From a virus (Duplodnaviria; Caudoviricetes), in the IMG/VR virus record IMGVR_UViG_3300033463_000061, positions 27,112 to 91,111 of that record: DNA of 64,000 nucleotides. One strand, given 5' to 3'. The notes beneath the pieces are model-generated. The model was not told the DNA's origin. It was given only the letters and a program-made list of their open reading frames with translations, and ran no database searches. Below are positions 1,795 to 42,236 of the stretch, one piece after another. Position 1 is the stretch's first letter; the number at the start of each line of letters is the position of its first letter. Made by a program: the position numbers and the translations under genes.

Positions 1795-1803
1795 AGGACC
1801 TCC

Positions 1804-2582: not shown

Positions 2583-2584
2583 GG

Positions 2585-2725
2585 CTAGCCCTCGCAGAGC
2601 GTTGCGGTGATCGAGTATGTGGCCTCGTCGTCCTTGTACCATACGGTGCCGAGGTTGCTCTCCACGTCCTTGTAGCCGTGCTCCTTGAGCCAGGCCACTA
2701 TTGTCTTTTCAAGTTCTTCTGGCAT
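2585..2725 (-). CDS. Small hypothetical protein (MPEELEKT...)
   Basis: GGAGG RBS upstream; fills the operon gap. Confidence 0.6.
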   Translation of the reverse strand: MPEELEKTIVAWLKEHGYKDVESNLGTVWYKDDEATYSITATLCEG

Positions 2726-2741
2726 ATTGTTGCCTCCTTTT

Positions 2742-3002
2742 TTAGCGCATGAACCCGATTTTCGGGTTTGAGACCTGCGGGAACACGGGCGCGACGAGTA
2801 AGTGCGCCCGTGAGTCGTACGGGTGGTCGCTCGTGAGCTTCCAGCCGCGCTTCCTGGCGTACTCCGCCGCAAAGCCCGCGTGGCGGAACAGCGCCGCCTC
2901 GTCCAGGCTGCTGTGCCAGCCTACGCCGGTCCAGTACATCAGGACGCCGCCCTTCCGAGAAGTCGTCCTCTCGAGGACATAGAATCCGTTGTCACCGGCC
3001 AT
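2742..3002 (-). CDS. Hypothetical protein
   Basis: Operonic ORF with RBS. Confidence 0.65.
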   Translation of the reverse strand: MAGDNGFYVLERTTSRKGGVLMYWTGVGWHSSLDEAALFRHAGFAAEYARKRGWKLTSDHPYDSRAHLLVAPVFPQVSNPKIGFMR

Positions 3003-3004
3003 GG

Positions 3005-3139
3005 CTACCTCCCCGTGCCGAGGCCGGTGACCTCGTGCGCGATCTCGCTCATTTCCCGTGTGATCGGCGTTCCGCTGCCTACGACGGCGATCGCCTGCGC
3101 AAGCGCCATCAGCTTGTCCATCTTTTCCTTGTCGCTCAT
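3005..3139 (-). CDS. Small hypothetical protein (MSDKEKMDKLMALAQ..., 44 aa)
   Basis: Translated by hand; AAGGAG RBS; fills the gap. Confidence 0.55.
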   Translation of the reverse strand: MSDKEKMDKLMALAQAIAVVGSGTPITREMSEIAHEVTGLGTGR

Positions 3140-3149
3140 ACTGCTCCTT

Positions 3150-3686
3150 TCAGTGTATCAGCCTGTTGTATTCGGCGTCGGTCAGATTGCCGAGCCAGGT
3201 GCTCGCCTTCTCGAGATTGGCCTGCACGTCCTTGGGCACTTTCTTGCCGTGGCGCTTGCACCACTCGGCTATGAGGGACGACCGGATCCAGTTGTGGAAC
3301 CCGTCATCGAACCATTGCTCGCTGTGCTCTTCCGGCTTTCCCATGGCTTTGCTACTTTTCTTTGGCTTCCGTGGCTGTCCGGCCCGCTTTACCCGCAGCG
3401 ACTCTGGGTCGCGGTCCCAGCTGTACCCTTTGCGTACCCATCCGCGGTGGCAAGACCGGCCGTTCGGGCCGGGCACGCACACGATCGTCGCGAAGGCCAG
3501 CCCTGGCTTGCGGGCGAACGCGGGGCTCGGGTGCTCGTACCTCTCCACGGCCTCGGCCTCCGACATGCCCTCCGGCATTGTCCAGAGGCCCCGGCTTCCG
3601 TCGACAATCAGGTAGCAGTCGTGCCCGTGCAGCGCCCTCAGCTGCTCCAGCGTGCGCATCCCCGTCGGTCGTGTCATGCGTGCCAT
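3150..3686 (-). CDS. Hypothetical protein
   Basis: Operonic ORF with GGAGG RBS. Confidence 0.65.
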   Translation of the reverse strand: MARMTRPTGMRTLEQLRALHGHDCYLIVDGSRGLWTMPEGMSEAEAVERYEHPSPAFARKPGLAFATIVCVPGPNGRSCHRGWVRKGYSWDRDPESLRVKRAGQPRKPKKSSKAMGKPEEHSEQWFDDGFHNWIRSSLIAEWCKRHGKKVPKDVQANLEKASTWLGNLTDAEYNRLIH

Positions 3687-3696
3687 CGCCCGCCTC

Positions 3697-4071
3697 CTAT
3701 ATTACCGGGTCCACGTACGCCGTCAGGAGGCACTTGCCGTCGCGGCACGTGGCCTTCATGCGGACCATTATCTCGCCGTGCGCGCCGAGGAGGTGGTTCA
3801 GCTCGAACGTGCTTTCCTTCGCGCCGGGGCTGTAGTCCGTGTTCCTGCGTATCTCGGTCAGCGTGGGCGAGCTCGCCATCCAGCGGAACGCCATGGTGGC
3901 GATCCTGTCGTCGCCCACGGCCGTGGTGTGGTGCCGGAATATCTTGAAGTCCCGGCTCTCGTCGTCGGGTATCTCGATCCCGACGGACGCCACGTGGCTG
4001 TCCATGTCGACGAGCCCGCCGTAGTTCGCCTCGCGGTTGAGGTTTACCTGCTTTCTCTGTTCTTCTGCCAT
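3697..4071 (-). CDS. Hypothetical protein (MAEEQRKQ...)
   Basis: AAGGAG RBS; start refined. Confidence 0.65.
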   Translation of the reverse strand: MAEEQRKQVNLNREANYGGLVDMDSHVASVGIEIPDDESRDFKIFRHHTTAVGDDRIATMAFRWMASSPTLTEIRRNTDYSPGAKESTFELNHLLGAHGEIMVRMKATCRDGKCLLTAYVDPVI

Positions 4072-4073
4072 CG

Positions 4074-4709
4074 TTACTCCTTTACGTTGATTGCGTCGTC
4101 GTGGTTCAGGACGAGACAGACGCAGCATCCGTCGTTGAGGTCCACCTGGACCTTGCCGAACGCGTCGATCTGCTGGCGGATATACGTCTCGTCCTTCCTG
4201 GTATAGCGCATCCCGTGCTGCTTGAACAGGCCCTTCACGTAGTCGATGAACTCCTTGAGGGCCGCCTCCTTCGTCGAGAACGCCTCCGGCCAGGGGGTCG
4301 TGAACTCCGGGTCCTCGTTGTCAGAGTCGCCGAACGTCACCGTGCGCCAGACCTCGCCGGCCAGCCCGTTCTCGTCGATGTCGAACCTGTACCGCTCCGA
4401 GCCGGAGCTGATGTCGTATGCGTTGCGGCGGTCGAACTCGCGGCGCAGGTACTCCTTCAGCCTGGCGACGCACCCCTTCCGGACGACAGTGGTCCCGTCG
4501 GAGCGCCGCACCGAGAAGAACGACTTCGCCTCGGGGTGGTTCTCGTCGTTGGCCATGGCCTGTGCGAATCCGAGCCGGAAGTCGATGCGGTTGAGGACGT
4601 ACTCCACCGCCTTCCCCACGGCCAGCGCCCTGGTCGTGTACGACCCCTCGACGAAGAAGTCGTCGCCGCAGTCCGTGTCGTCCCGCGACGATACGGTCCA
4701 GACCTTCAT
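4074..4709 (-). CDS. Hypothetical protein with an apparent internal duplication
   Basis: ATGA overlap; two similar VW-x-V...S(Y/F)xT-x-A segments. Confidence 0.7.
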   Translation of the reverse strand: MKVWTVSSRDDTDCGDDFFVEGSYTTRALAVGKAVEYVLNRIDFRLGFAQAMANDENHPEAKSFFSVRRSDGTTVVRKGCVARLKEYLRREFDRRNAYDISSGSERYRFDIDENGLAGEVWRTVTFGDSDNEDPEFTTPWPEAFSTKEAALKEFIDYVKGLFKQHGMRYTRKDETYIRQQIDAFGKVQVDLNDGCCVCLVLNHDDAINVKE

Positions 4710-5080
4710 TTGCCCCCCTTGTCCCGGGCGGATTCGACGACCTCCATCGTCTCGAACCCGAACCGTGTCTCTGAGAACCTGCATTCGTCGGCGCGTGACG
4801 CCGGCACGCATGGCAGCTTCATGAAGTCGTACACGGCGAGAGCAACGGCACGCGCCAGCTCCTTCTCCTCGTCGCTCGGCTCCTGCTTGCCGGAGTACTT
4901 GTCGGCGAAGAAGATGTCGGCGACCGACTCGGCCAGCCCCTCGATCATTGCCTCGCCGCTTTTGTACACGCCGGTGTTGCAGGTTTCGTCCTTGTAGGTC
5001 TCCTGCAGCACGAACACGATGTTCTTGCCGAAGTCCTCGTCCCTGTCCTGATTGCCCGCATCGTCGTTTTTCTTTGACAT
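4706..5080 (-). CDS. Hypothetical protein
   Basis: Operonic ORF with GGAGG RBS. Confidence 0.7.
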   Translation of the reverse strand: MSKKNDDAGNQDRDEDFGKNIVFVLQETYKDETCNTGVYKSGEAMIEGLAESVADIFFADKYSGKQEPSDEEKELARAVALAVYDFMKLPCVPASRADECRFSETRFGFETMEVVESARDKGGK

Positions 5081-5090
5081 GGTTTCCTCC

Positions 5091-5363
5091 TTAGTCTATG
5101 TATCCGCCTTCGTAGACCCGCTCGCAGTGCACGGCCGCGTCGCAGACCCCGTGCCCGCCGACCTGTGACGGCAGAGGCCTTCGGTACTCCGGCTTCTCGA
5201 AGTCGTTCACTTCGAGGAACTTCAGCTCGTTTCGCGCCCATTCGCACTTCGGGTACCGGGCCAGGATTGACTCCAGCTCGGCTTTGCGCTTCTCGTATTT
5301 CTCCTCGGCCGTCGGCTCGCGCTGCTCGATGCCGAGATCCTCACGTGCTTCCGCCATCGTCAT
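5091..5363 (-). CDS. Hypothetical protein (MTMAEARE...)
   Basis: ATGA overlap; start refined. Confidence 0.6.
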   Translation of the reverse strand: MTMAEAREDLGIEQREPTAEEKYEKRKAELESILARYPKCEWARNELKFLEVNDFEKPEYRRPLPSQVGGHGVCDAAVHCERVYEGGYID

Positions 5364-5650
5364 TTCGCACCTCCCTCGTACTTGACTACGACCATCTGGT
5401 TTACTCCGCCGTCCCACACGAGTTTCCACTTCACGCCGCGCGTGTCGACGAGGACGTCGTTCGGCTTGCCGCGCCTGTAGCGGTACTCCCCCTTGCAGGC
5501 ATAGGGCCAGACGCTCGCGCACAGGCCCCTGCGGAAGAACCAGCAGCCCGTGCACGGACCCTTGCCGCTTCGCGTCGTAGGCAGTACGGGGACGGCCGCA
5601 CAGGGGCCGACCGTCGTAACGGTCAGCTCACGTATGTAGTTCCGGATCAT
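5360..5650 (-). CDS. Cys-rich hypothetical protein
   Basis: CTGC...C...C cluster; operonic. Confidence 0.6.
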   Translation of the reverse strand: MIRNYIRELTVTTVGPCAAVPVLPTTRSGKGPCTGCWFFRRGLCASVWPYACKGEYRYRRGKPNDVLVDTRGVKWKLVWDGGVNQMVVVKYEGGAK

Positions 5651-5660
5651 GGCGTCCCCC

Positions 5661-6002
5661 CTACACGAACGCCCGCGGGCTGTACTTCGTCTCGAAGCAC
5701 TGGCTGCGGACGATGCGGGCGAACGCCCTCACGTGGTCCTCGTACTCCCCGTACGTCATGTCGCGCGCCATGTCCTCGTATATGCGCTTGCGGTCGGCCG
5801 CGACGGCCCACGCCTTTCCGGGCGACGGGACGTCCAGCAGGTGCCAGTCGTCGCCGTCCGGGAGGTGGTTCGACAGCCAGCCCTCCGACGCCTCCTCGTC
5901 GTTCAGGTGGTGGACGAGGCAGTCCATCGCGGCCAGCACCTCCGCGTGCGACGCAACGTCGCTCTCTCGGAGCTTCTTGTCCTTGTAGTCTGCGAATGCC
6001 AT
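5661..6002 (-). CDS. Hypothetical protein
   Basis: GGAGG RBS; operonic. Confidence 0.7.
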   Translation of the reverse strand: MAFADYKDKKLRESDVASHAEVLAAMDCLVHHLNDEEASEGWLSNHLPDGDDWHLLDVPSPGKAWAVAADRKRIYEDMARDMTYGEYEDHVRAFARIVRSQCFETKYSPRAFV

Positions 6003-6011
6003 GTCGTCCTC

Positions 6012-6335
6012 CTACCGGCCGCCTGGCCCTTCATTTGCGCATTCTCCAGCCGCAGCCGGGAGAGGATTTCCGGGGGGCGCGGAGAGGGCTGCGCGGCAGT
6101 CCGCTATCATCGCGTCGATCTCCGCGTGGTTGATGGATATCGTTTCGCACGGAATCGCCGCATGGATCTTCAGGTTGTCCATCACCCCATGCACGGCCGT
6201 GCGCAACTGCACCACCTCATTGCACAGCGCCTCCACCACGTCGTCCCACCGCAGGCGGCTCACGTCGCACCCGCTTGCCAGTTCGGTCTTAGCCCGTTCA
6301 CGAAAAAGGGCTATGTCGTTGTCCGTTATCGCCAT
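6012..6335 (-). CDS. Hypothetical protein
   Basis: Operonic ORF. Confidence 0.65.
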   Translation of the reverse strand: MAITDNDIALFRERAKTELASGCDVSRLRWDDVVEALCNEVVQLRTAVHGVMDNLKIHAAIPCETISINHAEIDAMIADCRAALSAPPGNPLPAAAGECANEGPGGR

Positions 6336-6345
6336 GTCAACCCCC

Positions 6346-6567
6346 TCAGAACCAGTTTCCCTGGCTGTCCATCATGCACTCCTTGCCGCAGTACTTGCAC
6401 TTCCCGGTGAACGACACGCCATCGAATCCGCCAGCGTCGCAGTCGTGCCAGCCGAGTATGTCGTGCCCCCAGCGCTTGCGGCACACCGTCGCGGCCAGCA
6501 CAAGAAAGACAATGGCGCAGACGGCCAGCGCCAGCAGTATAACCCCAAGTGTCATGCCTATGTTCAT
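6346..6567 (-). CDS. Small membrane protein with a Cys/His-rich C-terminus
   Basis: N-terminal hydrophobic helix; HDC...CKYC...C. Confidence 0.65.
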   Translation of the reverse strand: MNIGMTLGVILLALAVCAIVFLVLAATVCRKRWGHDILGWHDCDAGGFDGVSFTGKCKYCGKECMMDSQGNWF

Positions 6568-6649
6568 CTGTGTTTTCTCCTTTGTTGTTGGTTGTTTACA
6601 GGGCGCATTGCGCAAAGTCTCCCGGAAAAAGCCAGCATCCCCTGCTGCG

Positions 6650-7144
6650 TCAGCCGGCGAGCTCGCCTTCTTCCGTGACTTCCCACACGCCGTCAGCGTC
6701 AGTCATGAACAGCTTGACGTCGCGGTCGTCGTAGTCGACTCCGAGCTTCTCGCAGTCTGCCTTGCAGGCGGCTACGCACTCTTCGATAGTGCTGAACTTG
6801 CCGCTGACGACGCCGTCAGGCAGGCCGGCTCCGCATTTGGCAGCCGGGATTTCGTAGTGGTACGGCTTGTTCGTGCTCTCCCCTCTGTTTTCGGTTTGAC
6901 GCGGGGCAGGGCTGGATCCGATACCTGGCTGCTGCCGGGCCGCCGGCGCCGTTCTGGCCGCGGCTGCGTCCTTCTTGCACTCGCGCGCGATCCTGTCGAA
7001 GCAGCGGGTGCACAGGTCGAACCGGTAGTTCTCGGGCGTCGCCGAGCCGCCGCGGATGCGGCGACGCGCAGCCTGCTTGATGACGTAGCCTGTCTCGATG
7101 TCGTGACCGCAGACATCGCACACTATCTTCCGCACCTCAGCCAT
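6650..7144 (-). CDS. Zn-ribbon hypothetical protein (CDVC...LCTRC)
   Basis: Paired CxxC motifs; start refined to MAEVRK. Confidence 0.65.
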   Translation of the reverse strand: MAEVRKIVCDVCGHDIETGYVIKQAARRRIRGGSATPENYRFDLCTRCFDRIARECKKDAAAARTAPAARQQPGIGSSPAPRQTENRGESTNKPYHYEIPAAKCGAGLPDGVVSGKFSTIEECVAACKADCEKLGVDYDDRDVKLFMTDADGVWEVTEEGELAG

Positions 7145-7358
7145 GGCGCACCGCCTTGAACTTGTACTTGCGCTGGATTGCGCGAGGGGCGTTCGACAGG
7201 CGACGGCGGATTTTCCGCACGGTCTTCTGGCTCCTGCCGTTGGGCGGGTTTGGGTCGACAAGCGTGAGCGGTGCGCACCCGCCGTAGTAGTGGAGGACGA
7301 ACATGCGCTCGCCCGACGCGTTTACGCGTTCAGCCTTGTCTGTGATGTCTTTGTCCAT
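7137..7358 (-). CDS. Small basic hypothetical protein
   Basis: AAAGGA RBS; lies downstream of the structured element. Confidence 0.6.
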   Translation of the reverse strand: MDKDITDKAERVNASGERMFVLHYYGGCAPLTLVDPNPPNGRSQKTVRKIRRRLSNAPRAIQRKYKFKAVRHG

Positions 7359-7387
7359 GGTATTTTTCCTTTTGTATTGTACAGAGA

Positions 7388-7567
7388 GACGCCGCCGGCC
7401 GGCCCTTCAGCCGATCGGCGGCGTCCACCTCCCTGCGGAGGACGGCGTGTGCCCACGCCTTATGCGAGTTTCAGGGCATTGCTCCTGGCCGCATGTCCAC
7501 GGCGGGCCCGTAACGTAACGCGGTGCGGACGCGAGCGTGCCTGGTCGGCACGCCTCCGGGGGAAGGT
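7388..7567 (-). ncRNA. Unclassified structured RNA element (multi-stem domain plus a long GC hairpin)
   Basis: Outer stem ACCTTCC..CGGAGG/CCTCCG..GGGAGGT enclosing GCGTGCC/GGCACGC, GGAC/GTCC, ATGCG/CGCAT, CAGG/CCTG and GGCGTG/CACGCC; then a ~16-bp hairpin at 7388-7425. Confidence 0.45.
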
Positions 7568-7572
7568 CCCCG

Positions 7573-7872
7573 TCATGCAACCGGCACTACCTTGAGCTGC
7601 ACCTTCAGCACCTGTACCATGGGCTTGACGGAGTCGTCGAGCGACGCTACGAGCGCCTGTACCCAGGGGGAGGCAAGCCCGCGCTCGGCCGCCTCCTTCG
7701 AGCCGTAGCACTCGGCGTGCAGCAACCCGTCAGTCCAGTTCCAGCATGTCTCAGGCGCAGCCTTGTAGCCGCGTTGCACAGTCGAGCTGGTCACGTACAT
7801 CGGCGGGAAGCAGAAGTGCATCCCGATCACGTATGCGTGGCCCGTTGCGATATCCTGTACCGTTGCGCGCAT
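7573..7872 (-). CDS. Hypothetical protein
   Basis: Operonic ORF with RBS. Confidence 0.65.
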   Translation of the reverse strand: MRATVQDIATGHAYVIGMHFCFPPMYVTSSTVQRGYKAAPETCWNWTDGLLHAECYGSKEAAERGLASPWVQALVASLDDSVKPMVQVLKVQLKVVPVA

Positions 7873-7882
7873 GGCAGTCTCC

Positions 7883-9157
7883 CTAGAACGGGCGTGCGGA
7901 GTCGGTTGTGGCCAGGCTGCCGTTGCTCCACTGGTACGAGCGCGTGCCGATCGCGCGGTCCAGCTGTCCGCGGAGCACGGCTATGTCCTCCATCGCGTCG
8001 GTCATGCGCTCGTAGGCGTCGACGGCCATGCGCCGCCTGGCGCTGTTGTTTGTGCCGTCGCTTTCCTCTGCGTCACGGAACGTGTACTGCGAGGCGGCCT
8101 GCGCGCTCGTCTCCGCGCCCTTGACAAGGCTGCCGCGGGTCACCCCGAGCTCCTTCTCGAGCTTCTCGAGCGTCAGGTCGTCGGTGTCCGTCGTCCAGTC
8201 GCAGATGAAGTACAGCTTGCGGCTGTTCTTGATGACGCCGAAGAGGATGGGGTCGCGGCGCTTCTCGCGCTGCTTCTTCTCCTCCTTCGCCGACACCTTC
8301 TTCTCGACCGCGGTGGCCTTCTGGATTATGTCGGAGTAGTGCGCGACGACATAGTTGTCGAACACCATCAGCTTGTCGGCGGCGAGCTTCTTCTCGACGG
8401 CCTCCTGCGGGATCTCGTCCTCGTAGTAGCGGAGGAAGTCGACCATCGTCCCGCGCTCGGACTTCCGGAGGAAGTCGATCATCGTGTCCTCCGAGACGTA
8501 CGACGTGAATCCGGCCGCGATCACGACGGACTCCTCGGCGACGATCGCCTTGAGCTGCTTGACGACTTCGGCCTTCTTGTACTGGCCTGCCTGCCGCATC
8601 CCGGCCTCGACCTCGTTCAGCTTCGCCATGCGCGCGGCGAGGTCCTCGGTCGAGGTCAGCTCGATGTGGTCGAACAGGTCGACCATGGCGACTTCGACCG
8701 GCACGGTCTTCCGGTTGCGCAACCCGAAGGCGTTCCGCACCTTGTCCCACACCGTGCGCTGGGATACGAACTTCGCCTGCTTGAGGACGGATTCGTCCAC
8801 CTCGCGCTCGTGCTTCTCCCGGATGTGCCACCGGTCGTCCTGCACCGCCTTGTCCATGGCGATCAGGTTCCTGGCCTGCTTGCGGAGGATCTCCTTCTCC
8901 TCCTCGGGCTTGTCGAGCCGCTTGATGCAGCTCTCGGCCTCCTCCGGCGTCATGGAGCCGGAGAACGAGAACCCGATGGCCTTCTTGAACTTCTCCCACT
9001 CGTCCTTGAAGCGCTTCCACTTCGGCAGCTCCTGCTCGATGTAGAAGTCCTCCAGGACGCGCAGGCGGATCTTCCCGCCAACCTCGATGAGGGAGGGGTG
9101 GTCCTTGTCGGCGACAACGACCTTCTCCGGCTTCTTGTCATTAGTCTTGGTTGCCAT
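7883..9157 (-). CDS. Conserved phage protein, 'DPILFG...YFxxDW...DLTL' family (paralog 1)
   Basis: Clear similarity to 19238..20401. Confidence 0.85.
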   Translation of the reverse strand: MATKTNDKKPEKVVVADKDHPSLIEVGGKIRLRVLEDFYIEQELPKWKRFKDEWEKFKKAIGFSFSGSMTPEEAESCIKRLDKPEEEKEILRKQARNLIAMDKAVQDDRWHIREKHEREVDESVLKQAKFVSQRTVWDKVRNAFGLRNRKTVPVEVAMVDLFDHIELTSTEDLAARMAKLNEVEAGMRQAGQYKKAEVVKQLKAIVAEESVVIAAGFTSYVSEDTMIDFLRKSERGTMVDFLRYYEDEIPQEAVEKKLAADKLMVFDNYVVAHYSDIIQKATAVEKKVSAKEEKKQREKRRDPILFGVIKNSRKLYFICDWTTDTDDLTLEKLEKELGVTRGSLVKGAETSAQAASQYTFRDAEESDGTNNSARRRMAVDAYERMTDAMEDIAVLRGQLDRAIGTRSYQWSNGSLATTDSARPF

Positions 9158-19237: not shown

Positions 19238-20401
19238 CTATGGCTGCGACGGCGCACCGCCGCCGTCCTGCCTCGGGCTGGCCGGTGGCGTCGGAGCCGG
19301 CTCAAGCTCGATGAAGTTGCCCCTGTCCTTGGCCTCTGCGATGCTTCTGTCGACGTCGAGCCTGACGTCGTTTAGCAGCTCCTCGATGCGGTACTGGCTG
19401 TCCGCGATCTGCTCGTCCTTCAGCGTCGGCAAGGTGCCGATCGCCTTCTCGACCGTCGCCAGCGTCAGGTCGTCGTCCTTGTAGACCCAGTCTGCGACGA
19501 AGTACAGGTCGCGGCTCCCCCGGATCGTGCCGAAGAGGATCGGGTCGCGGCGCTTGTGGCGTTCTTCCTCGTCGATCTCCTCCTCCAGGAGCCTCGCGGG
19601 CTTTACGTCCTTGGAGTAGTACATGACGACGTAGTTGTCGAACAGCATGGCGAGGTTGCACTGGGCCAGCTTTACGGCAACGTCGTTCGGAATCACTTCC
19701 GGATAGTACCGGAGGAACTCGACCTGGACGCCGCGCTCGGCCTTCGTGATGAACTCGACGGCCTGCTCCTCGGTGAGGTATCGGCACATGTCGCGCTGCG
19801 CGAGCGCAAGCTTTGCCGCCAGCACGTTGAGGTGGTCCTCGACCTTCTTGGCCATGCCGAACTGGCAGGTCTGCTTGAACCGGTTGACGAGCGATACGGC
19901 GATCGCACGGCTGCGGAGCAGCTCCTCAGTCGTGACGTGGAGCTCGTCCTCCTTGGCTAGGCGGAACGTCTCCTCGACGGACACGCCGTCGCTGGGCGGG
20001 CGTTTGTTCTTGATCCACGACTTGGCCGCCCTGACAGCCGCCCGGAATCCGCCGCGCCGATCTATCTGCGAGGACGAGTCCGTACCAAGCCTGAGCCTTA
20101 TGTAGCGGTTGCGCGCCCATTTTGCCTCGCGGGCCGCCGTCGCGTCAGACACGCGGGCAGGGACCCCCTCGCCCTCGAGCCACCCGTTGCCGGCCGCGTC
20201 GGCCGCGTCGGCAGTCCCGACAACGATGTTCGCAGCGTTTATCCCGGAATCGCTCTTTGCCTCTTCCTCACTGATCTTCTTGTATTTCGGGAGGTCTTCC
20301 TCCACGAAGTACTCCTCGAACACCTTGAGTCTTGGCTTTCCGCCGACGACCGTTATTGACGGGTGGTTCTCCCAGCGGATGCGCTTAACTTTCTTGGCCA
20401 T
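19238..20401 (-). CDS. Conserved phage protein, 'DPILFG' family (paralog 2)
   Basis: Similarity to 7883..9157; AAGGAG RBS before MAKKVK. Confidence 0.85.
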   Translation of the reverse strand: MAKKVKRIRWENHPSITVVGGKPRLKVFEEYFVEEDLPKYKKISEEEAKSDSGINAANIVVGTADAADAAGNGWLEGEGVPARVSDATAAREAKWARNRYIRLRLGTDSSSQIDRRGGFRAAVRAAKSWIKNKRPPSDGVSVEETFRLAKEDELHVTTEELLRSRAIAVSLVNRFKQTCQFGMAKKVEDHLNVLAAKLALAQRDMCRYLTEEQAVEFITKAERGVQVEFLRYYPEVIPNDVAVKLAQCNLAMLFDNYVVMYYSKDVKPARLLEEEIDEEERHKRRDPILFGTIRGSRDLYFVADWVYKDDDLTLATVEKAIGTLPTLKDEQIADSQYRIEELLNDVRLDVDRSIAEAKDRGNFIELEPAPTPPASPRQDGGGAPSQP

Positions 20402-20543
20402 GCGTAGTCTCCTTGTCGGATGGTTGCACTTCATTTCCCGCATCCACGTTCTGCCTGTCGATGTCCGCCTGAGAGAAGATGCGAAGGCTCTGCCTGTCGA
20501 TCTGTATGGCCACAAACGGGCCCATTCCGATTTCAGTGCTCAT
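20385..20543 (-). CDS. Small hypothetical protein (MSTEIGMG...)
   Basis: Translated by hand; fills the gap. Confidence 0.45.
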   Translation of the reverse strand: MSTEIGMGPFVAIQIDRQSLRIFSQADIDRQNVDAGNEVQPSDKETTHGQES

Positions 20544-33573: not shown

Positions 33574-33602
33574 ATTGTACCAAATGATCGTGAACTTGTG
33601 AA
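33574..33602 (-). promoter_or_regulatory. Promoter TTCACA-N17-(TGG)TACAAT for the leftward operon
   Basis: Near-consensus elements with 17-bp spacing. Confidence 0.55.
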
Positions 33603-35418
33603 GCACGACACGACAGTAGGCTTGCCACCGGGTTCACCCGTGGGTCGAAAGCAGTCAGGATCATCGCGAGGAGATGCTCCATCTTTCTCTTCCGATGATC
33701 TGGTCTGTATTGGGGACTATCTTGCCTCTGACATAGGCAAGAAAGAGTGCAAGCTTCTCCGGCGAGGCGACATGCTTCCGTACCTCTTCAAGTTGCGCGG
33801 ACAGCCGATGTCGCTAAACGACCATATACAGTTTCACGCCATGTACTCAGACGAGTACGTCGCCGACACGGTATTCGTGTGCGGACGACAGGTCGGAAAA
33901 TCGCTGAACCTGTCACGTGTCGAAGTCCTGGACGCGCTCAGCGCAAACGAACTCCAGCTCCTGTACGTCGCCCCGCTCCAGTCGCAGTCGCAGCGCTATT
34001 CGACGCTGTACCTGAACGAGGCGATCAAGTCATGCGAACTCGCCAGGATAAACCAGATGAAGGCCCTCGAAGGGCTCTGGTCCGACTCGAAGATACTGAC
34101 GGCCGTCGGCCACCAGTCGTTCGCCAACGGCTCTGGCATCCAGCTGACATACGCCAAGACCTCCCCGGACCGCGCCCGCGGCATCTTCGCAGACATAATC
34201 GACTTCGACGAGGTCCAGGACCAGCTCACGGACAACATCCCGATCATCTCCCAGTCGACTAAGTCCTCCAAGTGGGGAATCCGCCGGTTCACGGGCACGG
34301 CCAAGACCGTCGACAACACGATCGAGGGGCTGTGGCGGAACTCGTCCCAGTGCGAGTGGGTGATGAAGTGCGACCACTGCGGGGCGTGGAACATACCGAA
34401 CATGGACGGACGCGTCCTCGACATGATCCAGGCCGACGGCATGCACTGCGTCGAGTGCGGCGGCAAGCTTAACGTCAGGAACGGTGAGTGGGTCCCCAAC
34501 AAACAGGACAAGATGAAGACGTTCCGCGGGTACCATATCCCGCAGGTCATCCTCCCGTTCCATACCGAGAACATGGACAACTGGGGCAAGATCGTTCGAG
34601 ACGTGATGACGCTCCCGATCCCCGTGATTCTCCAGGAAATACTAGGAATCAGCTGCTCGCAGGGGCAGCGCATCATCGACCAGAACACCATCGACAGGCA
34701 GTCGGTCCTCCCAGACGTACGCCAGCTCCAGGATCTGCTGCACAACTACGCCTTTACAGTCGGAGGACTCGACTGGGGCGGTGCGGAACAGGTCTCGTTC
34801 ACGGTGCACACAATCCTAGGCGTGTGCTACGACGGAACCATCGACGTCCTCTGGGCCCGCCGCTACCAGGGATTCGATCCGGACGAGATGCTCACGGAGA
34901 TCGCGAAGACCCATTTCTTCTACGGCTGCCGCGCGCTGGCGGCCGACTACGGCATGGGCTTTGACAAGAATGTCATGCTAGAGTCGCGGTTCGGAATCCC
35001 GGTCATCCAGATCCAGCTATGCAAGCAGAACGCGCTGATGAACTTCAGCCCTGCGCTCGGGCACCCGCGCTGGATGGTCGACAAGACCACCGCACTTGAC
35101 CTCATGTTCATGGGAATCAAGTACGGACGCATGCGCTTCCCGCCGAAAGAGCAGTTCGAGAGCTTCACGAAGGACCTGCTGTCCCCGTACGAAGAGGTCG
35201 TCGACCACGGAGAACTCGCCCACAGGCGGTTCGTCCGCGACCCGTCGCGTCCTGACGACTTCGCGATGGCCCTTTGCTTCGGGACGATGGTCGCCCTGAA
35301 GATGAGGCACTCCAAGCTGACGGACATCATACCGAAAGGTGCGCTCGCGACGAAAGTCGGAAGGCCTGAATTTACCATTCTCGACCCGGACGAGATCATG
35401 CGTGCGCTCAACAGCTGA
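33598..35418 (+). CDS. terL: Terminase large subunit (GpA-like, with Zn-binding insert)
   Basis: GRQVGKS Walker A, DFDEVQD Walker B, GTAKT, CDHC/CVEC, GLDWGG nuclease, PDDF; exact start uncertain. Confidence 0.9.
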   Translation: MKHDTTVGLPPGSPVGRKQSGSSRGDAPSFSSDDLVCIGDYLASDIGKKECKLLRRGDMLPYLFKLRGQPMSLNDHIQFHAMYSDEYVADTVFVCGRQVGKSLNLSRVEVLDALSANELQLLYVAPLQSQSQRYSTLYLNEAIKSCELARINQMKALEGLWSDSKILTAVGHQSFANGSGIQLTYAKTSPDRARGIFADIIDFDEVQDQLTDNIPIISQSTKSSKWGIRRFTGTAKTVDNTIEGLWRNSSQCEWVMKCDHCGAWNIPNMDGRVLDMIQADGMHCVECGGKLNVRNGEWVPNKQDKMKTFRGYHIPQVILPFHTENMDNWGKIVRDVMTLPIPVILQEILGISCSQGQRIIDQNTIDRQSVLPDVRQLQDLLHNYAFTVGGLDWGGAEQVSFTVHTILGVCYDGTIDVLWARRYQGFDPDEMLTEIAKTHFFYGCRALAADYGMGFDKNVMLESRFGIPVIQIQLCKQNALMNFSPALGHPRWMVDKTTALDLMFMGIKYGRMRFPPKEQFESFTKDLLSPYEEVVDHGELAHRRFVRDPSRPDDFAMALCFGTMVALKMRHSKLTDIIPKGALATKVGRPEFTILDPDEIMRALNS

Positions 35419-36064: not shown

Positions 36065-37525
36065 TTACGGGACCTTTTGCGGCAGTGTAGCCCTGTAGTA
36101 GTTCGTAAAGCTGCCGGTCTGCGTGCTTGACGCACCTGCGAGCGCGTCAATAAGGTCATTTAGCGTGTGTTTAATGCTTATAAGCTCTCCCTCGATACTC
36201 GACATGCGCGTTACAAGCTCCGAGCGATTCGCAGTGACGGTCTGTGACAGGGTAGCCACGCGCGTAGCGGCGAGGCTGTCAGCCTGCGAGACTGCGTTTG
36301 ATATGATTCCGCTGCGTGCCGCGGATATACGGCTGTCAGCGATCGTGCGCGCCCTCGCATCTATCGCAGCCTCGATCCCGCCCTCTAGCACAGAAAACCG
36401 GCTGCCGAGCGCGTCAATGTCAGCCCTCAGCGCGGAGTCGGCAGAGGTATATCCGGACTGCACCCCAGAGATCGCCTGATTGACGGAGGCGAGCGCGTTA
36501 CTTGCAGTTGCCTCATGCGCCTGCAGCTCGTCTCGTAAGCCGTCTATGGCGAGCGCCACCGTCGACAGCTGCCCTCCCCAGGATGTGCCCACAGACGCTA
36601 TCTGCGCCGCAAGCGAAGCCTGCGCGTTGTTCAGCATGTTCGACAGCACGATGTCGCCTGACGCCCGTGCATAGGCCTCTGTGTTGATCCTGGAGGACAG
36701 CGACGAGTCCGCGGAAGACAGGGCCTGCAGCGCCGTGCCTATGTCATTCGTGGCTCCGTCTATGTCCGACACGTACGCCACGACATGCGTTACGCCGCCG
36801 TCGGTGACAAGCGCACGGCCGCCGGACAGTATGACCTGGTCGCCGGAGACAGGATCCACCAGCGCCTCCGCCTTCGGGACCGTATCATACCCGGCATAGA
36901 CGTCCTCGTTGACAAGCGATGAGATGCCGACGACCGACCCGAGGTCAAGCCGTGTCACGGTAACCATGGTCGAACTGCCCTCGAGTCGCTCGACCGTGGC
37001 ACTGGACATCTTGATGTTGACCCTGCCGCCCGACACCGACAAAGTCCCTATGTCAACGCCGACGAGCGCAAGGCATGTGTCGTATGACGCGCCAGATACG
37101 ACAACTGACAGCGATTCGATGCGCGACATCGGGCCGAAGCCGGCAATAGTCACCGTCCGGCCAGCATCGAGCGGCAAGGTTCCGCTGTACGTGGCCGGGG
37201 CAAGCAGGACTGCGGAGTTCGGCGCCATGTTCGCGAATGCGTACGTCAGGCTCCTGAAGGGGTACTGCGGCGAGCCGTTGCCCTGCACGCGTGCGTTGCC
37301 GGCGGCGTAGTACAGGTTCGATATCGGCTGGGAGGCCCAGTCTGCGACCGGAGGGAGCAGGGATGCGTCAAGAACGCCGTCCGCCTTCGTCCTCGGAAGC
37401 ATGCGGGCGTACGCAGGAGACCCGCCGCGCTCCGTTACGCCGTCTGCCGCAATACGGTCGAGATCTCCGTATGCGCCTGCGGCGCAAACTGAAACAACTG
37501 CTGCCAGCAACATCCGGAAGTGCAT
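36065..37525 (-). CDS. Signal-peptide-bearing fibre/adhesin-like protein (beta-helix-like N-half, coiled-coil C-half)
   Basis: MHFRMLLAAVVSVCAAGAYG; ADGVLDASLLP; GNGSPQYPFRSL..VLLAPATY; heptad-rich C-terminus. Confidence 0.7.
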   Translation of the reverse strand: MHFRMLLAAVVSVCAAGAYGDLDRIAADGVTERGGSPAYARMLPRTKADGVLDASLLPPVADWASQPISNLYYAAGNARVQGNGSPQYPFRSLTYAFANMAPNSAVLLAPATYSGTLPLDAGRTVTIAGFGPMSRIESLSVVVSGASYDTCLALVGVDIGTLSVSGGRVNIKMSSATVERLEGSSTMVTVTRLDLGSVVGISSLVNEDVYAGYDTVPKAEALVDPVSGDQVILSGGRALVTDGGVTHVVAYVSDIDGATNDIGTALQALSSADSSLSSRINTEAYARASGDIVLSNMLNNAQASLAAQIASVGTSWGGQLSTVALAIDGLRDELQAHEATASNALASVNQAISGVQSGYTSADSALRADIDALGSRFSVLEGGIEAAIDARARTIADSRISAARSGIISNAVSQADSLAATRVATLSQTVTANRSELVTRMSSIEGELISIKHTLNDLIDALAGASSTQTGSFTNYYRATLPQKVP

Positions 37526-38051: not shown

Positions 38052-38060
38052 AGTATATCA
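38052..38060 (-). promoter_or_regulatory. Extended -10 TGATATACT overlapping the upstream stop codon
   Basis: TGn-TATACT directly before the structured element. Confidence 0.55.
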
Positions 38061-38654
38061 TTTCTGCTCCGTTTGTGCCATAGCGGCCACCAGCCCGCGC
38101 AGCACCGTTACGCCGGCGTACGCCTTGAGGGCCTTGTATGCTTCGACGTCATAATCGAGGACTGTGAGCTTCGTCGGCTTGAACGTCGCGAGGAAGCCGG
38201 CCATGAAGCCGTCGAGCGCCGAACACATGAGCTCCCTGACAACACGGACTTGCGGGAACTTGATCTCGAGAAGGGCGTAGGCGTAGACCACTACGGCGAA
38301 GGCCGCGATCACGACGGCGCCTGTGAGCGGCTTGACCTTTCCGGCTGCAACAAGTGCGTCAACGTGGCGCTTCGCCGCGCCTATGAACGTCTCCGACAGC
38401 CCCTCGCCGGGGCCTGGCGTGGTGTTCATCACCGCCGTGGCGACAGACACGAGCAGATCCCGCGTGTCCTGCGAGAGGCTGCACTCGTTGAGCACAAGGC
38501 CGGCGGCTCCGCCGATCCCCTTGCCAGCCAGATAGACCGCCTCCATGCCGGGGATCGACTTGCAGCCGGCCGCCTCTGTTGCCACGACGGCTACAACGGC
38601 CGTGCCGGCAGCGCCGGCGAGCAGGTCACGCCTCGTAACGAGCTCGTCTTTCAT
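38058..38654 (-). CDS. Putative Tat-exported lipoprotein with an internal hydrophobic helix
   Basis: TRRDLL twin-Arg motif, h-region, AAGC lipobox; GAVVIAAFAVVVYAYALL. Confidence 0.7.
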   Translation of the reverse strand: MKDELVTRRDLLAGAAGTAVVAVVATEAAGCKSIPGMEAVYLAGKGIGGAAGLVLNECSLSQDTRDLLVSVATAVMNTTPGPGEGLSETFIGAAKRHVDALVAAGKVKPLTGAVVIAAFAVVVYAYALLEIKFPQVRVVRELMCSALDGFMAGFLATFKPTKLTVLDYDVEAYKALKAYAGVTVLRGLVAAMAQTEQK

Positions 38655-39271
38655 CACGCAGTCCTCTTCGCGGTCCACGTCCCGTACACAGCAGCTGTAT
38701 CAACTACACGGCTCTGTCCCCAGATCCGGGTAGGCGAAACGTGCCCGTATTCGGCGCAGCCGCAGCCGATCTGCCCGGCGACCTGGCCCTTCAGCCGCTT
38801 GCCGTTCGAGTACCCGCGGCCTGCGAGGACCAGGAGGAGCGAGTTGTCCTCGGTAGGCGCAGGCCCTATCGCGTATGACGGCATGGCTTCGATCGGAAGC
38901 ACAACGGAGCGGGTCGTGAACTTGCCAGTCCTGTTATTCCCGATTCCGTGCCAGAGAACGGTGCCGTTGGGCTCGACGCCGTATGTGACGCGAGTCCCGT
39001 TCACCTTGTGCGTCGCGTTCTCAAGGCAGCAGAAGACGACCTCGGGCTCCGCGTCCCGTACGTACGATACGACAAACTCGCCCGAGATCGTCTGCATCTG
39101 GTACTTGCGGTAGCCGCGGGACGACATGTTGTCGTAGATGCGCGGGACGTAAAGCCGCATCTTCAACGACCACCGTTCGCGCCCTATGTACGAGGTGTCC
39201 GCCTTCAGTGCCCTGGCAACACTGACTACGGGGATCGCCATAAGCAGCTCCCGCCTAGTTAGTTCAGCCAT
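38654..39271 (-). CDS. Putative Tat-signal beta-rich exported protein
   Basis: MAELTRRELLMAIPVVSVARALKA; GQIGCGC; GTWTAKR; GGAGG RBS. Confidence 0.7.
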   Translation of the reverse strand: MAELTRRELLMAIPVVSVARALKADTSYIGRERWSLKMRLYVPRIYDNMSSRGYRKYQMQTISGEFVVSYVRDAEPEVVFCCLENATHKVNGTRVTYGVEPNGTVLWHGIGNNRTGKFTTRSVVLPIEAMPSYAIGPAPTEDNSLLLVLAGRGYSNGKRLKGQVAGQIGCGCAEYGHVSPTRIWGQSRVVDTAAVYGTWTAKRTA

Positions 39272-39303
39272 TGCCGGCCTCCTTCCTTTTACGTCGGCGC
39301 AGG

Positions 39304-39669
39304 TCAGAGGCCGACGGCCTTGGCCATTGCGGCGACTTCGCCCTGGGCGGCGCCTGCAACTGCCATTGGCGACACGCCATCGTCGCCGGCGCCGTCCTTG
39401 ACTCTGTCTGAGTGCATTGCAGCTTTCTCGAGATTCGTCGCGCACATGGCGCGGAACACCTCGACACGGGCGGCATGCTGCACGTTGATGAACTTGAACG
39501 TGGACAAGATCGACAGGATCGCGCCGATGAGATTCGGCGCGTACGTCGCGATGCCCTCGTTCTGCTCCGGCGTGATCACGCCGAAGGCAAGCAGGAGCCC
39601 GGCAACGCTCGTGACGACCGTAAGCCAGAACTCGGCCTTTGCAAAAACGGATGTTGTTTTGCTTTCCAT
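39304..39669 (-). CDS. Holin-like two-TM protein
   Basis: SVFAKAEFWLTVV...LLLAFGVITPEQ...LIGAILSIL holin-like pattern. Confidence 0.6.
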   Translation of the reverse strand: MESKTTSVFAKAEFWLTVVTSVAGLLLAFGVITPEQNEGIATYAPNLIGAILSILSTFKFINVQHAARVEVFRAMCATNLEKAAMHSDRVKDGAGDDGVSPMAVAGAAQGEVAAMAKAVGL

Positions 39670-39689
39670 TGGTTTACCTCCTGTGTTTG

Positions 39690-39965
39690 CTAGACGTGCA
39701 TCGTCGCTGACTTTGCAAGTATGTGCTTACGCTGGCGGGAGCGCTCCTTGCCCGCGTCAATCAACGCCTTCAGGGCCCCGGGGTATGCGGGCTGGACTTG
39801 CGCAGGCGCGGGCGCGGGCTTGTTAGGCGGCGCAGACGCGTTGCCGAGGTAGTTCGTGTTGGCGGGGTTTGCCGCGGTCCCTCGGTCAAGGTACGCCGGC
39901 GCTGCCGCCGCCTTCTCGAGCGCCAGCCAGCGGCGCATGCTTCTCACGGCTGCTGCCTTTGTCAT
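39690..39965 (-). CDS. Small Ala/Pro-rich protein with KxA motifs
   Basis: KAA, EKAA, KSA; ATGA overlap. Confidence 0.6.
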   Translation of the reverse strand: MTKAAAVRSMRRWLALEKAAAAPAYLDRGTAANPANTNYLGNASAPPNKPAPAPAQVQPAYPGALKALIDAGKERSRQRKHILAKSATMHV

Positions 39966-40660
39966 CTTGTCGCCTCCGTGACGGCGTTCGCACTGTCTTT
40001 CTGCTCAAGCGCGTCACCGACGTCCTCGCCGTCTTCGAGGAGGTTGTCGACGCGCTTGAGGTCTGGGATCCTGTTGAACTGGACCTCCAGGTCGAGCATC
40101 TGCTCCGTAAGGTACTTCTCGATATTAGCGGAGTTCCCGTCGGCCGCCGCGCCGGAGAGCGCTGACCTGATCCTGCCCTCGTCCGGCCTGCGCTCGAACA
40201 TCTCGGCGAATACGGGGGGAAGGTCACCGGAGCGCGGGTCGAACCCGTCGGCCTCGAGCTGCTGGCGCATATACTGCTGGATCGAGTACGAGAATGGCAG
40301 CACATCCCGGTTCATCGCAACCTCCGCGACAGCCCACGCAGCCTCCTCCGACGTGACAGGGTCGAACACGAGGAACGACGGCGACCCCGACGCGAGCGTG
40401 TTGCACACGTTCAGGAACGCGTCGAGCCGCTTGAAGAAGGCGTCGGAGCCCATCACGACCTGCATGGCGCACCAGCGGTCCATCGCCGGCGTGCAGACCT
40501 CGGCCTGGAAGTCGGCCGCAGCCTCCATCGCGCAAGTCACCGGGTCCCAGTCGTAGACCTGCTGGCCGTACTGGTCGAGCATTATGGCGTGCACGACCGT
40601 CGCCAGGGTCTGAGGCGACTCGAGGGCGAGCTTGCGGGGGTATGTCATCTTGTCGTTCAT
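39962..40660 (-). CDS. Acidic hypothetical protein (probably virion-associated); leaderless start
   Basis: ATG lies 6 nt after TGGTATAAT. Confidence 0.75.
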   Translation of the reverse strand: MNDKMTYPRKLALESPQTLATVVHAIMLDQYGQQVYDWDPVTCAMEAAADFQAEVCTPAMDRWCAMQVVMGSDAFFKRLDAFLNVCNTLASGSPSFLVFDPVTSEEAAWAVAEVAMNRDVLPFSYSIQQYMRQQLEADGFDPRSGDLPPVFAEMFERRPDEGRIRSALSGAAADGNSANIEKYLTEQMLDLEVQFNRIPDLKRVDNLLEDGEDVGDALEQKDSANAVTEATR

Positions 40661-40666
40661 GCCGGT

Positions 40667-40675
40667 ATTATACCA
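40667..40675 (-). promoter_or_regulatory. Extended -10 TGGTATAAT (leaderless promoter; contains the upstream TAA stop)
   Basis: Consensus sequence and spacing to the ATG. Confidence 0.6.
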
Positions 40676-42236
40676 CATTGTTTGCCTTAGCGCCACCCTG
40701 CGCCTTGGCCTTCTCCGCGGTCAGGTCCTTGACGAACCTGCGGTAGCCGTGCGGCTTGTCGTATACCCTCTCGGTGAACCCGGAGTTGGCGGCGGCCCGC
40801 GCACTGGCCTCGTTCTCCCTGAGGAGGGACCATATTATGCGCTTTACCTCGGTACGCCTGTCTTTCTTCCGTCTCGCCCTCGCAACAGCTGCCTCTATGG
40901 CTTCGTCCACCATAGACCTTGCCACGCGGCGCCCTCTTGCCGCGTCGGACACGGCAAGCGTGAGATTCTGGGAGGACCTGGGGCTCCCGTCCTCGTACAG
41001 TCCGTACAAGTCGGCAAACCCTATAGGAACGCCGCCGTCGTACGCGACGCGCCTGGCCGTGTACGGCACGTCCTTGTAGAAGGTCCTTCCGGGGGTGACG
41101 AAGTTCTTTTCCTCCGGCGTCAGGGCGTCATAGACCTTTTTCACGTCCTTGTAGGGGCCTTCCCGCAGTTCGATGCCGGCCTTCGCGGATGCCGACTTTA
41201 CGTGTTCAAGCCATCCGCTCGGCTGCCGCATGTTCATGTGGACCTTGTGGACGACGTTGGTGCCCTTCACCCTGTACCCGTGGTAGCCCACCTCGTCACC
41301 GCGTGCGGGCTCGACCCGCACCCCCAGCGCGGTGTTGTTCGAGATTACGACCCTGCGCCCGTCTTTCAGGCGTATGACGATCTGGTCATGCCCCTTCGTC
41401 TTGTCAGGCGTATATGCCATGACCCTGCCGCGGCCGGACACGTACTCCTCCGCGGACCTGGACCTGGCCTTGTCGCCCTCTGCGGCCTTGACGGCCTGCC
41501 ACACGCCGTTGACAGCCCGCAGCCTGTTCTTCATGAAATCGCTATGGCTTTGTGTTGCCTTGTTAATAGCCGCCTCGCTGTACGCCTTGTTCCCGCGGAT
41601 CGTGTGGGCTGGCGTGAAGACCCGCCTGTGCAGCCAGTCGGCATACTGCTCCTTCGTGTACTTCGCACCAGGCGCCATGTACGTCTTGTACCCGAACCGA
41701 GACGGCATGTACTTGTCGACGAAGTAGTCCACCTGGCTGTCGGCCGAGTCCGTCAGTTTGCTCTCGGCGAGCCACTTCCTGTATGCGGCGAGCGACGCGC
41801 CGGTGTACTGCGGGATGCCGTAGCCGCCCCCGCCGCCTATCTGCTTCGTCGCATGGTCGAACCTTCCGCCCGTCTCGCGGTTGAAATTGGCGAGGATCGC
41901 GGCCTCGAGGTCCGGGTTGTTCAGCTTCGAGTGCAGTCGGGACGCAACGTGGTTGATGCGCGACTCCGCTGTCGTGGGTAAGACCGGAGCGGCCGGCGTT
42001 GTGGGGGGCACTGGCGCCGGCCGCTCCGGAAGACGAAGTCTCTGCCCGATCGACAGGCGGTCGGGGTTCTTGAGGTCGTTGAGGCGTGCGAGCTCACGCC
42101 ATGTCGTGCCGTTTCTGGCGGCTATCGACGACAGGGTGTCGCCGCGCACTACGCTGTAGCGCGCCCCCGGCACCGCCGTAGCGACGGCGGCGGCCAGCTT
42201 CAGTAACGCCCTGCGATCTAGTTGTCTCTGTGCCAT
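40668..42236 (-). CDS. Multidomain protein: LysM + phage-tail-lysozyme-like + DUF3465-like + GNAT acetyltransferase
   Basis: YSVVRGDTLSSIA..L.IGQRLRLP; AILANFNRETGG..GYGIPQYT; H..I.L.DG..V..N..L..GD.V...HKVH..GWL; AVSDAARGRRVA..NEASARAA..GF. Confidence 0.8.
   Translation of the reverse strand: MAQRQLDRRALLKLAAAVATAVPGARYSVVRGDTLSSIAARNGTTWRELARLNDLKNPDRLSIGQRLRLPERPAPVPPTTPAAPVLPTTAESRINHVASRLHSKLNNPDLEAAILANFNRETGGRFDHATKQIGGGGGYGIPQYTGASLAAYRKWLAESKLTDSADSQVDYFVDKYMPSRFGYKTYMAPGAKYTKEQYADWLHRRVFTPAHTIRGNKAYSEAAINKATQSHSDFMKNRLRAVNGVWQAVKAAEGDKARSRSAEEYVSGRGRVMAYTPDKTKGHDQIVIRLKDGRRVVISNNTALGVRVEPARGDEVGYHGYRVKGTNVVHKVHMNMRQPSGWLEHVKSASAKAGIELREGPYKDVKKVYDALTPEEKNFVTPGRTFYKDVPYTARRVAYDGGVPIGFADLYGLYEDGSPRSSQNLTLAVSDAARGRRVARSMVDEAIEAAVARARRKKDRRTEVKRIIWSLLRENEASARAAANSGFTERVYDKPHGYRRFVKDLTAEKAKAQGGAKANNVV

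Follow-up and report, generated by a model that had tools for sequence, protein, structure and literature searches.

Three twin-arginine N-termini in one phage operon

We analyzed a window of 64,000 nucleotides (bases 27112-91111) from a single virus record of 91,111 bp, IMGVR_UViG_3300033463_000061 (Duplodnaviria; Caudoviricetes), in which three genes of one minus-strand operon, here called A, B and C, encode proteins that begin with a twin arginine (RR) and resemble substrates of twin-arginine translocation (Tat). A preliminary description of this DNA had placed three Tat-like leaders on either side of a small holin-like gene (H) and had proposed that the phage may use the Tat system of its host to export folded lysis or surface proteins. 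All three leaders were found at true gene starts on the minus strand, as described (Table 1). Protein A opens with T-R-R-D-L-L, 16 uncharged residues and A-A-G-C, protein B with T-R-R-E-L-L, 11 uncharged residues and A-R-A, and protein C with D-R-R-A-L-L-K and 12 uncharged residues, its LysM domain starting at residue 27. B has a strong ribosome-binding site (GGAGG) and its stop codon is overlapped by the ATG of A; C, whose Shine-Dalgarno (SD) sequence is weak, starts 12 nt past the stop codon of the preceding gene. The leaders do not flank the open reading frame H symmetrically: on the upstream side, two genes and a distance of 1 kb separate it from C, and B and A follow H directly.

We searched all six frames of the 91-kb record for RR-x-hydrophobic-hydrophobic with 11 or more uncharged residues behind it; A, B and C were the only true gene starts with this pattern. 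When the residues of each protein were shuffled (n = 2000), the mean number of such N-termini was 0.23 per genome, two or more were obtained in 2.4% of the shuffles and the maximum was three; the observed leaders lie above this control. The Pfam model TAT_signal (PF10518), run over the six frames of the 91 kb, gave two matches only, to the leaders of A (16.8 bits) and C (15.4 bits). The hydrophobic core (h-region) comprises 16 residues in A, 11 in B (12-16 in its RR-type relatives, and 25 in one) and 12 in C (9-10 in the related locus L001), where a Tat signal would be expected to have about 12-20.

Conservation of the leaders of A and B

Residues T7, R8, R9, G30 and C31 of A do not vary in any of its 11 homologues (at least 53% identity). 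The A-A-G-C lipobox noted earlier has the expected cysteine but is otherwise atypical, with glutamate at position -4 and, across the family, A-A, V-P or S-P at positions -3/-2. Because the Gly-Cys pair never varies, the sequence firmly identifies A as a lipoprotein precursor. A distant homologue detected by tblastn within the fetched loci (L009:9437-9967(-), 24% identity, E 3e-15) lies on an AT-rich 322-kb jumbo-phage contig, 1.5 kb from a B homologue; it carries a classical lipoprotein signal, of the signal peptidase II (SPII) type, and keeps Gly-Cys.

For B, a word-indexed search retrieved 83 homologues, none with a Pfam family, and homologues were present in 16 IMG/VR contigs of 7-434 kb and 32-69% guanine-plus-cytosine (GC). 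T-R-R-[ED]-[LI]-L opens all 19 RR-type sequences, which are among the closest relatives (57-75% identity; P0002-P0020 except P0012), and the h-regions behind it vary freely. Fifty-six further, more distant homologues have classical Sec-type leaders with lysine-rich n-regions at the same position, a few of them with a lipobox. RR-type leaders are longer than Sec-type leaders (33 vs 25 residues), less hydrophobic in their best 10-residue Kyte-Doolittle (KD) window (2.34 vs 2.59), and contain Arg or Lys in the c-region. One distant homologue (P0075) has an independent S-R-R-D-L-L leader. Conservation of the twin arginine, which the preliminary description had put forward as a check, is therefore complete for A and for the close clade of B.

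Since homologues keep a signal peptide at this place whatever its type, the N-termini of A and B are genuine export signals, and both proteins are very probably exported. The twin arginine and its flanks are conserved while the h-regions drift, and distant homologues have Sec or SPII signals there, which argues that the signals are of the Tat type; Tat is the somewhat favored route for A and B. The proposed use of host Tat by phage proteins was in this way supported for two of the leaders, A and B, and not for C.

The N-terminus of C probably belongs to a repeated motif

Protein C contains four Pfam domains, LysM (residues 27-70), Phage_lysozyme2 (111-186), DUF3465 (259-346) and GNAT (394-488), and its relatives were collected by an exhaustive HMMER search with residues 1-250 (P0095-P0115 and P0242). 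Half of the sequences that start with the N-terminal element have the twin arginine (4/8): it is present in this phage, in L001 (E-R-R-M-L-L-K), in P0099 (N-R-R-N-L-L-K) and in P0098, and absent in P0095, P0096, P0101 and P0105. Other relatives begin with another domain (GNAT in P0097 and P0108, DUF3008-like in P0109, P0114 and P0115), and in P0097, P0109, P0114 and P0115 the element, hydrophobic-L-x-K-[LIA]-A-[AQ] plus an Ala/Pro-rich run, forms an internal linker before LysM, lacks RR and cannot be a signal peptide. Domains are shuffled about the LysM-lysozyme core: GNAT precedes it in P0097 and P0108 and follows it in P0096 and in C itself, and P0103 joins the lysozyme to an N-domain like that of g710, another protein of the operon. 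The L001 homologue consists of LysM and lysozyme only and, with 239 residues, has the size of an endolysin.

The about 32,000 residues of the record contain four copies of the motif, when it is defined as [hydrophobic]-[hydrophobic]-x-K-[LIVTA]-A-[AQGS], and three of these copies are in this operon: at residue 10 of C, at residue 15 of g91 and at residue 286 of g710, the last at a domain border set by a split tblastn match to L001 (residues 1-278 and 445-710). It is kept in the L001 homologue of g91 and opens the unrelated GH24 lysozyme of locus L017. With the twin arginine missing from about half of the homologues that start with the element, and the element itself internal in fused homologues and recurrent in g91 and g710, the third Tat leader was not supported; the caveat attached to it at the outset, a short h-region and a KLA motif, agrees with the repeated-motif reading. 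Instead of a Tat signal, the N-terminus of C probably represents one copy of a repeated R-x-hydrophobic-L-x-K-A-A element; its weak PF10518 match can be explained by the overlap of L-L-K and the Ala-rich run with the Tat consensus. Lying before muralytic and other domains, the element is possibly a processing or packaging tag, and export of C through its N-terminus seems rather doubtful.

Predicted structures of A and B

The AlphaFold2 (AF2) model of A comprises five helices over residues 37-157, with a predicted local distance difference test (pLDDT) score of 70-88 in the bundle and 64 overall, and a fold search returned only non-specific helical matches (Z < 8). We considered and rejected A as a unimolecular spanin, since its hydrophobic helix (residues 113-131) is polar in L009 and lies inside the predicted bundle.

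The mature part of B was modeled by AF2 as an up-and-down 8-stranded beta-barrel (pLDDT 88), with long strands, short turns at one end and long, conserved loops at the other, which include a G-C-G-C...Y-G-H-V-S-P-T-R motif. Its fold matches at Z 9-11 were integral outer-membrane barrels and soluble 8-stranded barrels alike: NspA, PagL, OprF, OmpW and OmpX headed the ranking (Z 9.8-10.8 over 117-138 residues), and soluble barrels (designed barrels, Cap15, avidins) were nearly level (Z 9-10). ESM Atlas neighbors fell in the OMP_b-brl and PagL clusters (template modeling scores 0.5-0.58), and a profile search of PDB sequences with B gave no match. In the family alignment, entropy was 1.43 bits on the hydrophobic strand face and 2.10 bits on the polar face, so that the former is the better conserved, and charges mix freely on the latter. 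B has no terminal aromatic residue at its C-terminus, and in some homologues a lipobox replaces the signal peptidase I (SPI) site. We read this contrast between the two faces as that of a soluble 8-stranded barrel whose core is conserved, and B would most likely reside as such in the periplasm or wall space; a barrel of this kind fits what a Tat passenger should be.

H, the H-B-A gene order and neighboring lysozymes

Protein H has two hydrophobic segments (residues 14-32 and 40-58, from KD peaks), matched no holin family in the Pfam, PHROGs and NCBIfam searches and is 1 kb from the nearest lysozyme gene. The two segments of the two-transmembrane (TM), holin-like frame first described were thus recovered, and by its predicted topology only, H may be called holin-like or Imm-like. 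Its 36 homologues are unnamed and clade-restricted. The order H-B-A was seen in L001 and, judging from matching contig sizes, appears to be present on three more contigs (71 kb, 21 kb and 5 kb).

Genes for B adjoin lysozyme domains in several phages. In L016, the ATG of B (7938-8507) overlaps the stop of an 853-residue protein (5380-7941) whose last 160 residues are Phage_lysozyme; in L008, B (7956-8534) comes just after a 2634-residue protein (55-7959) with Phage_lysozyme at its C-terminus; in L017 (7998-9218), a 195-residue GH24 lysozyme directly follows B; and in the window, a PF18013-type lysozyme lies 1.4 kb upstream of B. Where a lysozyme domain ends a large protein and the next gene overlaps and encodes an exported protein, the arrangement resembles toxin-immunity pairs, and a lysozyme neighborhood is equally typical of lysis accessories. 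Directly upstream of the B homologue of L017 is a gene (L017:7635-7985 (+)) for a 116-residue protein with three TM segments that matches the C-terminal part of Exosortase_EpsH (E 3e-15), an odd find in a phage.

Searches of the record, which is about 51% complete, with PF00959, PF01510, PF01464 and TatA returned nothing significant. The label of lysis module found no confirmation: H matches no holin family, A is probably no spanin and, with only about half a genome in the record, another lysis cassette may lie elsewhere.

Proposed mechanism and alternative explanations

Our best explanation, to which we assign a probability of roughly 55%, is that A and B are exported by Tat and belong with H to an envelope module. 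In a high-GC clade of ~190-kb phages, the host TatABC complex would export folded A and B by means of their twin-arginine leaders. Signal peptidase I would cut B after A-R-A, and Lgt and signal peptidase II would lipidate and cut A at Cys31, which would leave B as a soluble beta-barrel in the periplasm or wall space and A as a membrane-tethered helical bundle; H, B and A would then form a conserved three-gene envelope module. Because B genes overlap or abut lysozyme domains in other phages, we guess that B binds or controls a muralytic enzyme from the periplasmic side, and it might either shield against a superinfecting phage's lysozyme, in the manner of T4 Spackle acting with Imm, or time degradation of the wall by the phage itself. 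By analogy, control of a lysozyme or exclusion of superinfection by H-B-A is a tentative proposal, and a role as lysis accessory is to be taken with the same reserve. Still more speculative is the fuller picture of an undescribed Tat-exported envelope module in which B is a lysozyme binder or inhibitor, serving Spackle-like immunity or as a lysis timer, and the switch from Sec to Tat is an adaptation to the host.

Several observations weigh against this explanation, and they are shared in part by alternatives, each of which we consider unlikely. The leaders of A and B might be ordinary Sec signals (SPI/SPII) with an n-region that acquired its arginines by chance in a GC-rich genome, Tat playing no part. 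Most homologues of the mature domains of A and B are exported by Sec, with which these domains are evidently compatible, and in a relative taken to be one 71-kb contig a Sec-type B stands beside an RR-type A, so that Tat is not required by the fold. The curated Tat hidden Markov models also stayed below threshold, A (16.8-17.1 bits across searches) and C falling short of the PF10518 cut-off of 22.7 bits, A reaching 14 bits with TIGR01409 (cut-off 16.7 bits) and B giving no match. The h-region of B has just 11 residues in this phage and, although short, is fairly hydrophobic (KD 2.5), and a B profile had no match in 185,579 species genomes; a Tat system and an outer membrane in the host are assumed. 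(A haloarchaeal host, in which Tat would be the main route, was rejected on account of basic rather than acidic proteins, strong SD sites and a peptidoglycan-binding LysM-lysozyme.) What speaks for Tat in the face of these points is the invariance of T-R-R-[ED]-[LI]-L with its acidic residue after the twin arginine, the long n-region and the basic c-region, all of them traits of Tat rather than Sec signals. Moreover, B relatives in equally GC-rich phages (L004, L007, L008 and L016, 67-69% GC) use Lys-type Sec leaders, so the twin arginine of B is not a by-product of base composition; nor is it the default of this phage, because g486 of the same operon has a plain Sec-like leader. The Sec explanation would gain from the fold of B, whose best matches, NspA, PagL and OprF (Z 10-11), are integral outer-membrane barrels and as such Sec travelers. 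These matches, the ESM Atlas neighbors and the shape of the model, with its long strands and its short turns and long conserved loops at opposite ends, would equally suit a B that is itself an integral outer-membrane barrel of the OmpX/OmpA/PagL type, inserted in the host outer membrane with A as its lipoprotein partner, for instance in receptor masking or in weakening at lysis. We know of no Tat-routed integral outer-membrane barrel, which makes a Tat-type leader on such a protein unprecedented to our knowledge; the conserved hydrophobic face is the pattern of a soluble barrel, soluble barrels scored almost as well, B lacks a C-terminal aromatic residue and some homologues are lipoproteins. 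Against the proposed lysozyme-binding role of B, the lysozyme inhibitors MliC and PliC were not among its top 50 fold matches.

Least probable of the alternatives is the preliminary description taken to its full extent: all three leaders would be Tat (or SAR-like, for signal-anchor-release), H would be the (pin)holin of C, an exported endolysin, and with B and A these would make up a lysis cassette routed through Tat. It draws on the PF10518 matches of the leaders of C and of P0099 (18 bits, over a 16-residue hydrophobic stretch), on TM-like hydrophobic stretches of 15-16 residues at the element in P0098, P0099 and P0105, and on a Sec-type signal directly before the lysozyme domain of P0104; the endolysin-sized L001 homologue, the lack of any other muralytic family in the 91 kb and the cassette-like order of membrane protein, B and GH24 lysozyme in L017 point the same way. 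These features have to be set against the loss of the twin arginine in P0095, P0096, P0101 and P0105, the position of the LysM-lysozyme behind another domain in P0097, P0108, P0109, P0114 and P0115, with the element an internal linker where it is visible (all of these but P0108), and the shortness of the uncharged stretch (12 residues here, 9-10 in L001). The motif furthermore recurs in g91, without an h-region, and inside g710; the DUF3465 and GNAT domains of C and the fusion of the P0103 lysozyme to a g710-like domain are typical of packaged multi-enzyme proteins; H has no holin family match; and, the record being about half complete, a missing second endolysin means little.

The operon and its surroundings

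IMG/VR classes the record as linear, and CheckV gave the estimate of completeness. Because proteins identical to A, B and H are present on a contig of 192,199 nt, the phage is probably ~190 kb in size, about twice the record. GC content along the window is 59-69%, and the GenBank phage collection contained no nucleotide match and nothing close. The operon is transcribed in the order g336, g710, C, g244, g91, H, B, A, DUF192 protein, g486 and g93, the last encoding one TM segment. For g244 (39962-40696, minus), a start at the GTG listed (40696) would bring an overlap with C, and the ATG at 40660, which matches the start of the L001 homologue, is likelier. The protein g486 (36065-37525, minus; 486 residues) matches a surface-protein family weakly in one region; its C-terminal half is long, rich in Ala/Ser and coiled-coil-like, and from its sequence it could be an exported fiber or depolymerase-like protein. 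Two paralogous transposase-like genes (phrog_10081) lie within the replication module, at 7883-9157 (-) and 19238-20515 (-), and no relative was found among the 185,579 species genomes; a PADLOC run returned nothing useful.

Table 1 Features of the window around the H-B-A genes (positions count from the first base of the window)
Feature	Position	Strand	Description
Replication module	1-33 kb	minus	
Terminase	33598-35418	plus	
Operon holding A, B, H and C	45415 down to 35711	minus	
Protein A, 198 aa	38058..38654	minus	Putative Tat-type lipoprotein precursor, predicted helical bundle
Leader of A, residues 1-31	38562..38654	minus	T-R-R-D-L-L, 16-residue Ala/Gly/Val h-region, lipobox-like A-A-G-C
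Protein B, 205 aa	38654..39271	minus	Putative Tat-type signal, then predicted 8-stranded beta-barrel
Leader of B, residues 1-21	39209..39271	minus	T-R-R-E-L-L, 11-residue h-region, c-region with Arg and A-x-A
Protein H, 121 aa	39304..39669	minus	Two hydrophobic segments
g91, 91 aa	39690..39965	minus	N-terminal RR and L-x-K-A-A-A-A, without h-region
Protein C, 522 aa	40668..42236	minus	LysM, Phage_lysozyme2, DUF3465, GNAT (Pfam)
N-terminal element of C, residues 1-25	42162..42236	minus	Probable Tat look-alike, L-x-K-A-A motif class
g710, 710 aa	42249..44381	minus	L-x-K-A-A-type motif internal at residue 286, domain border
Divergent operon with subtilisin-like protease	from 45469	plus	
Baseplate genes	from 57 kb		

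Significance and comparison with known systems

Sec is the known route for phage proteins with a periplasmic role (antiholins, spanins, exclusion factors and secreted endolysins). Full-text literature searches yielded no natural Tat-exported phage lysis or envelope protein; what they did yield were endolysins fused to Tat signals by engineering and, for Mu gp25, a speculative connection with Tat. No phage-encoded substrate is named in a comprehensive Tat review from 2026, which mentions phages only for SlyD/PhiX174 and PspA (PMC13673990).

If our explanation holds, two envelope proteins of a phage clade have exchanged Sec-type for Tat-type leaders and phages exploit the export of folded proteins, with the same mature domains standing behind both signal types as a natural experiment. 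It would also define two uncharacterized families of exported phage proteins, of which that of B occurs widely among large and jumbo phages and is recurrently linked to lysozyme domains. The separation of true signals from a Tat look-alike, the repeated L-x-K-A-A element, matters for the annotation of such genomes.

Among known systems, the T4 pair of Imm, an inner-membrane protein with two TM segments, and Spackle, a periplasmic inhibitor of the gp5 tail lysozyme, offers the same combination of a small two-TM protein with signal-bearing periplasmic proteins in a large lytic phage, and the same link to lysozyme, in our case through the repeated coupling of B genes to lysozyme domains. There is no similarity of sequence or fold, Spackle being helical and B a predicted beta-barrel, and the T4 proteins are of the Sec type. 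The lysozyme inhibitors MliC and PliC, which are 8-stranded beta-barrels, share with B the predicted fold class, the presumed periplasmic location, the existence of lipoprotein and soluble forms in one family and the conserved loops at one end of the barrel, but B is about twice as long and has other conserved motifs. A resembles the unimolecular spanin T1 gp11 in combining a lipoprotein signal with a strongly hydrophobic helix (residues 113-131), and departs from it in that this helix is followed by ~65 residues, is the core of the modeled five-helix bundle and is polar in L009.

C, g91 and g710 recall the capsid-targeting or processing leaders of T4 (IPI-III, Alt), in which a short element likewise recurs at N-termini or domain borders, here within one operon; the T4 element is L/I-x-E, whereas here it is hydrophobic-L-x-K-A-A. 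With SAR endolysins and their pinholins, and with signal-peptide endolysins, the operon has in common a muralytic enzyme that begins with an Ala-rich, weakly hydrophobic stretch and a small two-TM membrane protein, but in C this stretch, with 12 uncharged residues against the about 16-20 of a SAR segment, falls short, does not persist as a TM segment among homologues and is internal in fused ones, and C adds an OB-fold and a GNAT domain.

Compared with bacterial Tat substrates, A and B come from a lytic-type phage, score below the cut-offs, belong to no cofactor-binding family and have relatives that are mostly exported by Sec. Their leaders nevertheless share with bacterial Tat signals and Tat lipoproteins (S/T-R-R-x-F-L-K) the T-R-R-x-L/F-L core, a moderately hydrophobic, Ala/Gly-rich h-region and conservation across homologues, to which B adds the basic residue of the c-region and A the cysteine of the lipobox.

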